This document shows positions 13,041 to 34,414 of a DNA stretch of 64,000 nt, piece after piece. The stretch covers positions 6,645 through 70,644 of the forward strand of contig JACQLT010000001.1 in NCBI GenBank assembly GCA_016203945.1, read 5' to 3'. The notes beneath the pieces were generated by a model. It saw only the letters and a list, made by a program, of their open reading frames with translations, searched no databases and had not been told where the DNA came from. Position 1 is the first letter of the stretch. Each line of letters starts with the position of its first letter. The position numbers were made by a program, and so were the translations under genes. Source of the DNA: Parcubacteria group bacterium. GTDB taxonomy: Bacteria; Patescibacteriota; Minisyncoccia; Minisyncoccales; UBA10102.

Positions 13041-13069
13041 AGTATATCATTTATCCTTGACTCGGTTAA
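13041..13069 (-). promoter_or_regulatory. alaS promoter, leaderless type
   Basis: TTAACC-17-TATACT (TGa extended), 6 nt to ATG. Confidence 0.45.
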
Positions 13070-13070
13070 G

Positions 13071-13079
13071 TTATCCACA
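13071..13079 (+). promoter_or_regulatory. consensus DnaA box
   Basis: TTATCCACA, abuts alaS -35. Confidence 0.3.
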
Positions 13080-13108
13080 CCTTGACTTAGCCAAGGATAT
13101 ACGACCGT

Positions 13109-13149
13109 AAAAGAAAGGGGGGTCAGAGCCACTGATGTGGATAACCCCC
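13109..13149 (-). terminator. terminator-like hairpin after secreted-protein gene
   Basis: GGGGGT...ACCCCC with inner CCAC/GTGG, followed by TTTCTTTT on minus strand. Confidence 0.4.
13136..13144 (-). promoter_or_regulatory. consensus DnaA box (inverted)
   Basis: tgtggataa on plus strand; inside terminator-like loop. Confidence 0.25.
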
Positions 13150-29540: not shown

Positions 29541-30101
29541 TTACAATGAGCGGATTTCCAACAGCGTTCCTTTGGCTCCGGGCAATGCACCCCGTACCGC
29601 CAGGAGGTTGTTTGCCGCATCCACCTTCATGATCTCCAAGTTCTTTACGGTGACGCGATCTGCTCCCATGTGGCCCGGCATGCGCTTTCCCTTTACCACG
29701 CGCTGAGGAAAGCGGCCGCCCACAGAGCCCAGCGTACGGTGTTCGTGCTTCACTCCGTGGGTCGCGTTTCTTCCGGAAAATCCGTGTCGTTTCACGGCAC
29801 CCTGGAATCCCTTACCCTTGGAAATACCTGAAATCTTCACCTTGTCGCCTTCCTGAAATGCCGAAACCGAAATCTCTTGTCCGACCTCAGCATCAAAGCC
29901 GTTTTTGAATTCCCGAAGGAACTGATATTTGCCCTTTTTTCCCTTGCGCCCCAATTGAACCGCCTCATACCCGTCTGTATCTTTTGTGCGAATGCGCACC
30001 ACTGTGCAGGGGGCAGCTTCAATCAGGGTAACAGGAAACACTCTTCCGTCTGCATGAAAGATTTGAGTCATTCCTACTTTTTTTCCTAGTAATGTCTTCA
30101 T
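29541..30101 (-). CDS. rplC: 50S ribosomal protein L3
   Basis: LLGKKVGMTQIF...; ATG 30101 preferred over TTG 30116. Confidence 0.9.
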   Translation of the reverse strand: MKTLLGKKVGMTQIFHADGRVFPVTLIEAAPCTVVRIRTKDTDGYEAVQLGRKGKKGKYQFLREFKNGFDAEVGQEISVSAFQEGDKVKISGISKGKGFQGAVKRHGFSGRNATHGVKHEHRTLGSVGGRFPQRVVKGKRMPGHMGADRVTVKNLEIMKVDAANNLLAVRGALPGAKGTLLEIRSL

Positions 30102-30196
30102 ATCTATTTGCAACAAAAGACCGGGTACTCACCCGGCCAACACCGCGAGTACTCGGACAATCAATTCCTTATGAGGCTGCGCTCCACATCCCCATA
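30102..30196 (-). promoter_or_regulatory. rplC 5' leader with terminator/antiterminator-like elements
   Basis: ccgggtgagtacccgg + tcttttgtt 10 nt before ATG; upstream cgagtactcg can pair with gagtac of the hairpin. Confidence 0.4.
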
Positions 30197-30202
30197 CAAA
30201 CC

Positions 30203-30231
30203 AGTGTAGAAAACTTCCGCCCAAATGTCAA
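30203..30231 (-). promoter_or_regulatory. internal promoter for rplC-rplD... operon
   Basis: TTGACA-17-TACACT; phased A-tracts upstream. Confidence 0.55.
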
Positions 30232-30293
30232 CACCTTCTTGCACCTTCTTGTCCGGGACAAGGAAAAACAAGGAAAAAAACAAGGATAGAACC

Positions 30294-30314
30294 AAAACGC
30301 CCCTTTCGGGGGCG
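30294..30314 (-). terminator. intrinsic terminator after rpsJ
   Basis: cgcccc-cgaaa-ggggcg followed by TTTT on minus strand. Confidence 0.65.
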
Positions 30315-30359
30315 CTGGCTTCCCGCTCATCCTTGACTCAGTCAAGGATGAGTCAAGGA

Positions 30360-30698
30360 TTAGACGGTTTTGATTTCGATGTCTACTCCGGCCGGCAAAT
30401 TGAGGTTTCCTAAGGCGTCGATGACTTTGGGATTCGGATTAAGAATGTCTATGAGGCGCTTGTGCACTCTCATCTCAAACTGCTCCCGAGCATCCTTGTG
30501 CACGAAGGAAGAGCGGTTGACGGTGTATTTCTTGATCTCGGTGGGAAGGGGTACGGGACCTACGATTTGACATCCCTGGCGCAAGACGGCTTCCGCGATC
30601 TGCTTGCAGGAAGCGTCAATAACCTTGTGGTCGTATGCCACAATGCGGATTCGTAGTTTCTGTGAAAGAGCTTCTTTTTCTGCCCGCTTTGCCACCAT
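30360..30698 (-). CDS. rpsJ: 30S ribosomal protein S10
   Basis: [15 protein letters not shown]...GPVPLPT. Confidence 0.93.
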
Positions 30699-31962: not shown

Positions 31963-32187
31963 TCATTCTATCGGCAAATCGTCAAGGGTAAACTCTTCTT
32001 CGGGCGGCTGCGCTGTATCGTTCTCCATGCCGTTGTTTCCGTTATTCCCATTGAGAGCACGATTCATCCCCAGCCCCTGCCTATCGTATTCTTCGAAGGG
32101 AAGGATGACGAGGGTCGGCTTTCCGTCTTCCACGATAATAACCCGCTCTCCGTTTCTGATGAGGTGTTTGACGTCTTTCAAGTCCAT
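31963..32187 (-). CDS. small Phd/YefM-like antitoxin-fold protein with acidic tail
   Basis: 74 aa; ERVIIVEDGKPTLVILPFEEY resembles Phd/YefM core; Asn/Gly linker; tail EEEFTLDDLPIE; ATG 1 nt after fusA stop. Confidence 0.45.
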   Translation of the reverse strand: MDLKDVKHLIRNGERVIIVEDGKPTLVILPFEEYDRQGLGMNRALNGNNGNNGMENDTAQPPEEEFTLDDLPIE

Positions 32188-32188
32188 G

Positions 32189-34297
32189 TTACCTGCGCTT
32201 TCCCTCAATAATCTCCTGGGCGATAGAGGGAGGAACTTCCTCGTATCGGTCAAACTCCATGGTAAATGTCCCTCGTCCCTCTGTCAATGAGCGGAGAGAG
32301 GTGGCATACCCGAACATTTCAGAAAGGGGTACCTTGGCGTGCACTATCTTCATCTGCAGCCGATCTTCGGTGTCCTGAATGGCAGCCCTCTTTGCAGAAA
32401 GGTCCCCGATGACGTCTCCGAAGAAATCAGCAGGGATTAACACCTCAAGCGCCATGATGGGCTCGAGCAGCACGGTCTGCGCCTTCCTGGCCGCCGCCTG
32501 CAGAGCCATGGAGGCTGCGATCTTAAAAGCGATTTCTGAAGAATCCACGTCGTGATAGCTGCCGTCAAAGAGCGTTGCCTGCACGTCAATCATAGGGTAT
32601 CCGGCGAGCACGCCTTTGTCCAATGCTTCCTTCACTCCTTTTTCCACCGCGGGAATGTACTCCCGGGGAATTGATCCTCCTTTGATTTCATCTACGAACT
32701 CAAATCCCTCCCCTCTCAACTTCGGAGCAAGTTTGAGCCATACGTGTCCGTATTGGCCGCGGCCTCCAGACTGCTTGATGTATTTGCCCTCGGCCTCTTC
32801 TTCCTTTTTGATGGTTTCTTTGTAGGCAACCTGGGGGCGGCCGATGTTCGCCTCCACGTTAAACTCGCGCTTCATGCGGTCCACAATGATTTCCAAATGA
32901 AGCTCTCCCATGCCAGCGATAAGGGTTTCTCCTGTTTCCATGTCAGAGCGAACCCTGAATGTCGGGTCCTCGTCAGAAAGGCGCTTGAGGGACATACCCA
33001 TGCGCTCCTGGTCGGCTTTGGTCTTGGGCTCAATGCGAATGGAGATGACGGGCTCGGGGAACGAAATCTGTTCTAAGAGTAAGGGAGCCTGCTCGTCGCT
33101 GAGCGTGTGTCCCGTGGACGTGTTCTTGAGGCCGATGGTGGCTGCAATGTCTCCTGCATAGAGATCTTCCACTTCTTCCCGTTCGGCTGCATGCATACGC
33201 AGTATCCTGCTGATGCGCTCTTTTTCCTGGGTCGTAGTATTCAAAATGTACGAACCCTTCTTGAGCGTGCCCGAATACACCCTAAAGTACGTGAGGGTGC
33301 CGACGTACGGGTCTGAAGCCACTTTAAACGCAAGAGCTGAGAAGTGTTCTTCATCTAAGGGTTTGCGCTCTTCTTCTGCTCCGGTTTTTGGATTCGTGCC
33401 CTTGACCGGAGGAAGATCGGCGGGGCTGGGAAGGTAATCGGCTACCCCGTCCAGCACAAGCTGCACTCCCTTGTTCTTCAGGGATGACCCGCAGAATACG
33501 GGGACCAATGTTCCCGTCAGGGTCCCCTTGCGGATGACGCGCTTTACATCCTCGACCTTGAGTTCTTCTCCTGCCAGATAGGCTGCAAGAAGCTGTTCGT
33601 CTTCTCCCGCTATCTTTTCCAGCAGTCGGCTCCGCCATTCCTTGGCTGACTCTACATACTCTGCCGGAATGTCGCGCTCCTCCACTTGGCGCCCCATTTC
33701 TCCTTCAAAGAAGTATGCCTTCTGCCTCAGAAGGTCAATGATGCCTTCAAACTTCTCTTCTTCCCCAATCGGAATCTGCAAAGCTATTGCGTTGGGAGTG
33801 AGTTTCGTGAATACGGAGTTCAGGCTCTTCTCAAAGGACCCTCCCATGCGATCCAATTTGTTGATAAAACAGATGCGGGGAACGTGGAACTTGTCCGCCT
33901 GGTGCCATACGGTTTCAGACTGGGGCTCCACTCCTGCCACGCCGTCAAACACGACAACGGCCCCGTCCAGCACGCGCAGGGAACGCTGCACTTCTGCGGT
34001 AAAATCAATGTGGCCGGGGGTGTCAATGATGTTGATGCGGTATTCATTGCTCTTGGAACGATCCTGAACATACGTGGGCGTCCAGAAGCAAGTCGTCGCG
34101 GCCGAGGTAATGGTGATGCCGCGCTCGCGCTCCTGAGCCATCCAGTCCATGATAGCCGCCCCCTCGTGCACCTCCCCTATCTTGTGGGAAATGCCCGTGT
34201 AAAACAAAATGCGCTCGGTTGTCGTTGTTTTCCCGGCGTCAATGTGCGCGATGATTCCGATATTCCGGTATTTTTCTATGGGATATTGTCTGGGCAT
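32189..34297 (-). CDS. fusA: elongation factor G
   Basis: [18 protein letters not shown] motifs; 702 aa. Confidence 0.97.
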
Positions 34298-34303
34298 ACT
34301 TAT

Positions 34304-34319
34304 GCGAAATGAGCAAATG
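34304..34319 (-). repeat. 16-nt direct repeat copy A' just upstream of fusA ATG
   Basis: gcgaaatgagcaaatg, identical to 34419-34434 (last codons of rpsG). Confidence 0.9.
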
Positions 34320-34414
34320 TCGCTTCGCTCCTTAATAACCTTCGGTTTTTAATATTTTTCCACCACGGGAGGATACCCAATCCTCCCGACCCCTCCTGTG
34401 ATTTGCTCATTTCA

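Follow-up and report, generated by a model that had tools for sequence, protein, structure and literature searches.

The spacer between rpsJ and rplC was analyzed in a 64,000-nucleotide (nt) stretch of DNA from a Parcubacteria group bacterium (the window; assembly GCA_016203945.1, contig JACQLT010000001.1, positions 6,645 to 70,644). The spacer is read here, with moderate confidence, as housing a promoter-proximal transcription attenuator of the rplC operon, built on a leader motif conserved in Parcubacteria and probably serving feedback by a ribosomal protein (r-protein). On the minus strand, the genes are arranged in the order fusA, a small open reading frame (ORF), tuf, rpsJ, the gap, rplC, rplD, rplW, rplB, and onward. 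The rpsJ stop codon TAA lies at 30362-30360 and the rplC ATG at 30101-30099, which leaves a gap of 258 nt (30359-30102), rather than the 243 nt given in an earlier annotation of this DNA (the original prediction). The four elements that the original prediction had named in the gap, i.e., a terminator, A/T tracts, a promoter, and a structured leader, were all found on the minus strand. The features of the locus, in the direction of transcription, are the following:

30360-30698, minus strand: rpsJ (ribosomal protein S10), 112 amino acids (aa), final gene of the fusA/tuf-rpsJ block (ORF list)
30326-30352, minus strand: 12-bp hairpin CUCAUCCUUGAC-UGA-GUCAAGGAUGAG, directly after the rpsJ stop (sequence)
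30288-30316, minus strand: putative terminator T1, AGCGCCCC-CGAAA-GGGGCGUU (30316-30296) then UUGGUUCU (terminator scan)
30232-30287, minus strand: T-rich stretch with CCTTG(T)n repeats and two copies of CAAGAAGGTG, upstream of the -35 hexamer (sequence)
30203-30231, minus strand: sigma-70-type promoter, TTGACA (30231-30226), 17 nt, TACACT (30208-30203) (promoter scan, 10/12)
30169-30196, minus strand: hairpin P0 (30196-30170) at the predicted 5' end of the leader, with a mini-ORF (fold)
30145-30156, minus strand: element A, CCGAGUACUCGC, which includes the palindrome CGAGUACUCG (30155-30146) (fold, conservation)
30111-30138, minus strand: putative terminator T2, hairpin GGCCGGGU-GAGU-ACCCGGUC (30138-30119) and U-tract UUUUGUUG (30118-30111) (terminator scan)
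30104-30172, minus strand: match to the covariance model R1, covering element A, a linker, T2, and the tail (34 bits, E = 8e-5)
29541-30101, minus strand: rplC (L3), first gene of the leader-served rplC-rplD-rplW-rplB-... cluster (ORF list)

By sequence similarity, the matches of S10 and L3 place the window in the Patescibacteria/Parcubacteria (Paceibacteria). S10 is 62-79% identical to its 80 best Patescibacteria/Parcubacteria matches; among species-representative genomes, the top matches reach 78-79%, and one of these is a Wildermuthbacteria metagenome-assembled genome (MAG). For L3, identity to the eight nearest L3 proteins is 85-91%, and every one of the eight carries Pfam PF00297. The relatives used for comparison are 160 related loci (labelled L001, L002, etc.) with 121 distinct rpsJ-rplC spacers. 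The original prediction started from the premise that rpsJ is normally contiguous with rplC, which is not so in Parcubacteria: the median spacer of these relatives is 171 nt, and one of the 121 distinct spacers is shorter than 30 nt. Long gaps between rpsJ and rplC are typical of this lineage, and so the premise is inapplicable to the window. Coding DNA was also considered as an account of the gap and rejected, as a 58-aa ORF at 30345-30169 has no Pfam match and the region cannot be aligned with close relatives. Scans for consensus sequences returned 19 terminator-like matches versus 18.1 in shuffled sequence and 16 promoter-like matches versus 10.0; because these scans alone do not rise above shuffles, the significance of the elements rests on comparison with relatives.

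The comparison centers on a GC-clamped hairpin followed by a U-tract, which is present in 87 of 102 distinct rpsJ-rplC spacers (0.6 in shuffles), whereas the same hairpin search applied to equal-sized pieces of rplC coding sequence found it in 2 of 102. The hairpin core reads GGG(C)...(G)CCC and is followed by the U-tract (consensus GCCCGGUUUUUnAUUA). In the window, the corresponding structure is T2, which has the sequence characteristics of an intrinsic terminator: an 8-bp stem with six GC pairs, the loop GAGU, and then UUUUGUUG. As the original prediction had it, the ~95-nt leader ends in a hairpin and U-run close to the rplC ATG. It holds T2 and UCUUUUGUUG, and the U-run ends 10 nt before the ATG, the hairpin itself ending 17 nt away. 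From 85 distinct examples of the motif (alignment A2), the covariance model R1 was built. With filters off, the sole R1 match in the 64-kb window is the one at 30104-30172, and in 461 kb plus 368 kb of related loci all matches with E <= 1 were either an rpsJ-rplC spacer or the reverse-strand echo of its hairpin. Where ORFs have been inserted between rpsJ and rplC (L001, L117, L122), the motif still adjoins rplC. Five loci (L046, L047, L064, L066, L079) lack the GGGC...GCCC motif; two of them, L046 and L047, are Kaiserbacteria MAGs. All five carry another GC-rich hairpin with a U-tract (CGCGC.../...GCGCG) 10-16 nt before rplC (~35-40 nt in L066), and its sequence suggests an analogous device.

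A second helix accompanies the hairpin across the family. Upstream of the hairpin, a segment A is complementary to B, the top of the 5' arm plus the loop, and A varies in step with B, as in the pairs AUAGCC/GGCUAU, AUUGCC/GGCAAU, CUAACC/GGUUAG, CUAAAGC/GCUUUAG, and GCUUCACA/UGUGGAGC; the window has GUACUC/GAGUAC. On A2, the A:B helix is 84.9% paired, compared with 12-54% when the partner is slid, and none of 500 shuffles reaches its score; at pair 27-50, UA is found 31 times and AU 27 times. Many of the A:B pairs are G.U, which argues for pairing at the RNA level and on this strand. In a register-free test, an A:B helix of at least 6 bp was obtained for 77 of the 85 sequences, versus 31% with mismatched apexes and 27% with shuffled upstream sequence. 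The original prediction had proposed comparing spacers for covariation; this comparison shows that both A:B and the terminator stem covary across relatives, and at the family level A:B is a second helix, mutually exclusive with the terminator, with covariation support. When folded as a truncated RNA ending before the 3' arm, 76 of 85 sequences pair B with A, whereas the full-length minimum free energy (MFE) structure is the terminator in 73 of 85. These modeled folds conform to the kinetic-versus-thermodynamic layout that an attenuator would be expected to have.

In subgroup I (21 sequences), RNAalifold adds a third helix, X:A, between a conserved CGAUnGUU close to the rpsJ stop codon and AAC-AUUG, which forms the 5' portion of A. 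This helix encloses a hairpin, P1, with 3-8 double changes at each of its six pairs. The subgroup I set therefore comprises X:A, A:B, and B:B' followed by the U-tract, and X:A would act as an anti-antiterminator. L001 and L131, which are nearer to the window, repeat the X:A layout with different sequences. Subgroup I also conserves AUAACAAC as a single-stranded segment, within which UAACAA is found and which the window does not have. Antitermination of the BoxA/NusB-NusE kind, suggested by this UAACAA, was set aside on account of the absence of that sequence from the window.

The leader is preceded by a promoter and, farther upstream, by T1. The promoter proposed originally, TTGACA-17-TACACT, is present with a scan score of 10/12, and its hexamers are conserved in the clade of the window, of which seven members were compared (the window, L081, L083/L084, and L162-L165). 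Among the relatives, when the last 45 nt of rpsJ are included, 42 of the 88 spacers that carry the motif have a promoter scoring at least 10/12 upstream of it; shuffled sequences give 4.9 +/- 2.2. A scan limited to the spacer gives 17 of 88, which is too low because many -35 hexamers lie inside the final rpsJ codons. In ~25 relatives (e.g., L094, L115, L123, L155, L158), TTGACA occupies a fixed site, at -23 from the end of the stop codon, within the codons for a conserved S10 V-D-I, and a -10-like hexamer directly follows the stop. The window belongs to a minority layout, shared with L083, L006, L022, L051, L001, and L009, in which a terminator follows rpsJ and the promoter lies farther downstream. 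In roughly half of the relatives, no promoter match at 10/12 or above was seen.

Several parts of the clade leaders are invariant, including the -35 hexamer, the -10 pattern T-A---T, the AUG that follows it, GGAUGUGGAGCGCA, CCUCAUAA, UCCGAGUACUCGCGGU, and GCCGGGUG-GU-CCCGGUCUUUUGUUG. Element A with its palindrome and the U-tract are invariant as well, and so is the T2 stem-loop but for two changes that preserve pairing through U.G. Variation is seen in the promoter spacer, between the -10 and the AUG, in the linkers, and in the stretch from T1 to the -35. Between the window and L083, leader identity is 88%, that of third codon positions 69-72%, and that of the T1-to-(-35) stretch 46%. In three members (L162, L164, L165), the promoter-leader-rplC module stands with no rpsJ among the genes called upstream. 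These three relatives provide the strongest evidence that the promoter is able to drive the operon alone. By sequence, the element thus has the properties of a sigma-70-type promoter: its hexamers are kept, its spacer drifts, and it appears able to serve the operon by itself.

Downstream of T2, no promoter was found by scan before the rplC ATG in the window, and none usable was found in the relatives. In relatives with a long distance between hairpin and ATG, promoters in the extra DNA were considered and dismissed, since that DNA consists of inverted-repeat insertions or duplicated rplC 5' ends; L035, L097, L123, and L156 carry long inverted-repeat insertions, resembling miniature inverted-repeat transposable elements (MITEs), and duplicates of the first ~20-30 nt of rplC between motif and gene. 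As no promoter fits between T2 and the ATG, read-through of T2 would be obligatory for the operon. The same observation bears on an independent small-RNA gene, in which the promoter at 30231-30203 and T2 would delimit a trans-acting RNA of ~85 nt. The promoter and terminator do bracket such a length; however, the element always lies directly upstream of rplC on the same strand, the essential operon has no later promoter and depends on read-through, and at the stringency used a promoter match is missing from about half of the relatives. On the grounds of its position and of the dependence of the operon on read-through, a small-RNA gene was rejected as extremely improbable.

At the upstream boundary, T1 likewise has the sequence characteristics of an intrinsic terminator (an 8-bp stem, then UUGGUUCU), and the terminator scan called it at 30316-30296, where the original prediction had seen a GC hairpin and T-run after rpsJ. 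Folded together, the 12-bp hairpin and T1 reach -41 kcal/mol (z = -6.4). T1 presumably ends the tuf-rpsJ transcript, as judged from its sequence. It is kept in L083/L084 and L163, and a like GC hairpin and T-run follow rpsJ in L001, L006, L009, L022, and L051, each with a distal promoter. Between T1 and the -35, (T)CCTTG with T-runs occurs three times (30287-30258). The phased A/T tracts of the original prediction are thus present, but they are not conserved in the closest relatives, the stretch being effectively unalignable with that of L083. In sequence, it could be UP-element-like.

On the reading favored here, the rpsJ-rplC spacer would separate two transcription units and then act as a regulated gate for entry into the second. 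The tuf-rpsJ transcript would end at the tandem hairpin and T1, the sigma-70-type promoter would start a new transcript at ~30196, and the ~95-nt leader would have to be read through for expression of rplC-rplD-rplW-rplB and onward. The 3' two-thirds of the leader would be one instance of the Parcubacteria pre-rplC motif, in which the apex-complementary segment would pair first during transcription and compete with folding of the terminator; in one large subgroup, a third helix could sequester the competing segment. The attenuator would set the number of polymerases that enter the operon, and a free r-protein encoded downstream (L4 or L3, by analogy) would probably shift the balance between helices.

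In the window, the sequence of element A complements T2 at its apex and along its 3' arm. Its partner is GUGAGUAC-CGG, which takes in the upper 5' arm, the loop, and the greater part of the 3' arm; the pair probabilities are 0.61-0.99 (mostly >0.96), and the MFE structure contains this helix as well. Accordingly, the palindrome CGAGUACUCG pairs with GAGUAC of T2 in the folds, as originally predicted. The 36-nt alternative helix that results (C30156-G30121) is computed at -18.0 kcal/mol versus -13.2 for T2.

A number of points weigh against an attenuator, beginning with this fold. At equilibrium, the alternative helix makes up ~98% of the ensemble and T2 ~1%, and the alternative helix includes the 3' arm of T2 and reaches to within 2 nt of the U-tract UUUUGUUG. 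In these models, T2 and the alternative helix may both be terminators in the window, and a simple on/off switch is weakened there because both conformers could terminate. The terminator/antiterminator layout of the original prediction therefore stands in part: a competing helix covaries across the family and is dominant in the window fold, but the window helix still abuts the U-tract and is not a clean antiterminator. The two substitutions within the clade (loop A to G and 3'-arm A to G) fit T2 and the alternative helix equally, via U.G. Across the family, A:B is mostly short (6-7 bp, ~-7 to -10 kcal/mol in truncated RNA), and the complete motif folds at -16 to -26 kcal/mol. The pairing of the terminator stem on A2 (93.5% of cells, with changes on both sides at six pairs) is partly built in, since members of A2 were chosen by the hairpin criterion; the A:B statistics are not. 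R1 matches at E <= 0.01 occur in 92 of the 160 loci, most of the R1 matches being seeds of the model, with the window sequence itself in the seed; the newcomers from outside the seed are L031, L078, L061, L002, and L030. A lead toward rRNA mimicry, from GGUUAGUGC and GCAAUGGC standing side by side at E. coli 23S 2318-2332, was dropped, as k-mers of 106 motif sequences compared with E. coli 23S as reference gave no consistent site and no excess over an antisense control. Finally, it is from sequence that we infer termination at T1 and T2, a start near 30196, regulated switching, and the identity of the effector.

Such points would suit a constitutive boundary, in which T2, or else the longer helix, works as a fixed terminator or insulator with some leakage and holds the ratio of leader starts to operon transcripts constant, with no switching factor. 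In relatives with short spacers, it would stop read-through from tuf-rpsJ, and the upstream complement would only tune its efficiency. Both window conformers keep a hairpin at the U-tract, and the terminator greatly exceeds A:B in stability in most lineages. The ~25 relatives with a promoter over the end of rpsJ have no T1, so that the hairpin is the first terminator after rpsJ, and no ligand was found, nor rRNA mimicry in the 23S comparison. However, the complement tracks the apex in most of the 34 apex types, subgroup I possesses the additional helix X:A, whose internal loop is conserved, along with a covarying P1, and single-stranded AUAACAAC is conserved beyond what pairing needs. This is more apparatus than a fixed terminator requires, and a constitutive boundary is considered unlikely.

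The distance between hairpin and start codon bears on yet another account, in which the hairpin is a translational operator or an mRNA-stability element: an r-protein would bind it, or its folding would control access to the rplC AUG, or it would protect the 5' region, and it would not be a terminator. Among 75 distinct spacers with R1 matches, the median distance from the end of the hairpin to the ATG is 19 nt, and the hairpin lies no more than 35 nt away in 51. Genes of the cluster lack Shine-Dalgarno sequences, so structure near the start should matter, and E. coli L4 represses translation as well. Nevertheless, the U-tract (UUUUnnUU) is as conserved as the stem, although a pure operator has no need of it. 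In 13 of the 75, insertions have moved the hairpin at least 90 nt from the ATG, yet it is kept, and in L165 an insertion of 23 nt lies between T2 and the ATG. A role of this type appears improbable.

Toward its predicted 5' end, the leader of the window contains an AUG (30195), 7 nt after the -10, which opens an 8-codon ORF, MGMWSAAS* (30195-30169). The ORF coincides with P0, a 27-nt hairpin in which its start codon pairs with its stop codon. This arrangement raises ribosome-mediated attenuation, in which translation of the mini-ORF from a leaderless AUG opens P0 and the terminating ribosome, 12 nt from element A, selects the helix. All seven clade members have the AUG 7-8 nt past the -10, even though the intervening nucleotides differ. 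L006, L022, L051, L001, and L135 also have an AUG 6-8 nt after the -10, and the overall count is 18 among the 42 spacers with a promoter. In L164, a 39-nt hairpin insertion in the mini-ORF region is in frame. Moreover, first genes in this genome can be leaderless or nearly so. In several of them, 7-14 nt separate a -10 from the ATG (promoters near 13046, 42222, and 35338), and the view of the original prediction that first genes are leaderless stands in part: the alaS ATG lies 7 nt after TATACT, that of a glutaredoxin-like ORF at +10, and that of rpsL at +14. No Shine-Dalgarno sequence precedes any gene examined (rpsJ, rplD, rplW, rplB, tuf, fusA, rpsG). Given the near-leaderless first genes and the lack of Shine-Dalgarno sequences, ribosome loading at a 5' AUG is conceivable.

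Other properties of the mini-ORF argue against its translation being the signal. As its AUG and stop are paired in P0, structure alone could explain their retention, and both substitutions seen in the mini-ORF within the clade are nonsynonymous, one of them improving a pair of the P0 stem (G.U to A-U). Its length ranges from 2 to 21 codons and its stop lies 2 to 24 nt from A. Subgroup I lacks an AUG of this kind, and the mini-ORF has no regulatory codon runs. Ribosome-mediated attenuation is accordingly regarded as a distant prospect. Equally doubtful is the broader idea that the leader senses ribosome availability rather than a single protein, with a free 70S ribosome on the P0-locked leaderless AUG opening P0, ending ~12 nt from element A, and redirecting the downstream helix. 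If it were true, such sensing would couple transcription of the main ribosomal-protein operon to spare translational capacity, and would do so in organisms without initiation led by Shine-Dalgarno sequences. Attenuators of the trp type offer a useful comparison. The subgroup I set X:A, A:B, and B:B' with the U-tract resembles their four segments (1:2, 2:3, 3:4), and the leaders of the window clade, like them, carry a short ORF at their 5' end. Unlike in trp-type attenuators, regulatory codon runs are absent and the mini-ORF is base-paired and not universal; the sensor is therefore probably a protein and not a stalled ribosome.

Returning to the attenuator with r-protein feedback, feedback from a protein encoded in the operon would be the expected logic, by analogy with known systems. 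The E. coli S10 leader, which precedes rpsJ, brings about L4-mediated, NusA-dependent transcription attenuation together with translational repression, and L4 lengthens the NusA-dependent pause at the terminator hairpin. The window element is similar in that a structured leader, whose last hairpin has the form of an intrinsic terminator, would gate an rplC-rplD-rplW-rplB operon. It differs in location, since it follows rpsJ and precedes rplC, and in lacking Rfam-level likeness (E <= 10); its family also has the apex complement and, in one subgroup, a third helix, so that several helices would compete. Leaders such as that of Bacillus subtilis infC-rpmI-rplT (L20) and others in Firmicutes are likewise built on mutually exclusive helices before r-protein operons, and here as there protein binding would favor the terminator. 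In contrast to these, the window element belongs to a different operon, lineage, and fold, with no rRNA-mimicry signal against E. coli 23S and no Rfam match.

A search with Rfam 15, proposed along with the original prediction, found no r-protein leader family matching the region. At gathering scores, the whole window gave one tRNA only; at E <= 10, the gap region gave only two snoRNA noise matches; and at E <= 1, the spacers of 11 related loci gave only noise, far below gathering scores. In the portions of the literature covered by our search, the element is not described, and no r-protein operon leader was found for the Candidate Phyla Radiation (CPR; Patescibacteria). With respect to Rfam 15 and that literature, the motif is new. 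The closest precedent in gene context is an L4 r-leader candidate of Archaeoglobi, located before rplC, rplD, rplW, and rplB+, for which L4 was proposed as the ligand by precedent (Eckert and Weinberg, 2020; PMC7247131). In the parts of that paper drawn on here, an L4 leader before rplC is given for Archaeoglobi only, and no Parcubacteria or CPR motif appears (Eckert and Weinberg, 2020). The Archaeoglobi candidate shares its downstream genes with the window element but has an archaeal host, and the two are unrelated in structure, as no Rfam family matched the region or the 11 relatives.

The element precedes rplC in most sampled Parcubacteria, with enough covariation to define a family, and it differs from the E. 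coli solution in placing the predicted control point after rpsJ and in using two or three competing helices. Leaders of r-protein operons are the main known bacterial means of balancing ribosome components, and the well-studied ones are narrowly distributed. The motif would be an incremental addition to this known class. It would improve the annotation of operons and non-coding RNAs in CPR, and it offers a concrete RNA for study in organisms that cannot be cultured.

The 12-bp hairpin after rpsJ is an inverted repeat of the unit ATCCTTGAC, of which an extra direct copy lies at 30361-30351. The L083 and L163 versions of this hairpin carry compensating changes (CTTGAC to CTAGAC) and have TGTGGATAA embedded. 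Inverted repeats of ATCCTTGAC recur in intergenic DNA, namely, at 13052-13143 in the window (upstream of an alaS-like gene), at 30326-30361, at L083:486-570, and in the L163 spacer, where two copies, with TGTGGATAA, follow rpsJ. TGTGGATAA is a perfect DnaA-box sequence and is flanked by ATCCTTGAC repeats both upstream of alaS and after rpsJ (L083, L163). A second TTATCCACA is located at ~13143-13135, and the ATCCTTGAC repeat overlaps the spacer of the alaS promoter. From its sequence, the inverted repeat could be a repeat element or an operator.

Two other sites in the cluster are noteworthy. The rpsG-fusA spacer (34298-34414, minus strand) is 117 nt long and is enclosed by a 15-bp helix (GUGAAAUGAGCAAAU / AUUUGCUCAUUUCGC), inside which hairpins form; its MFE is -40.9 kcal/mol (z = -5.4), and none of 200 shuffles folds as well. 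On this modeling, the str-operon portion of the cluster holds a candidate structured element in this spacer. An ORF of 96 aa, situated between fusA and tuf (31963-32253, minus strand), has a weak match to the Phd/YefM antitoxin family (E = 3e-4, 20.9 bits, below the cut-off of 29.8) and represents an odd insert between two translation-factor genes. A match to TTGACA-17-TACCAT is found at 32287-32259, inside the 3' end of fusA.

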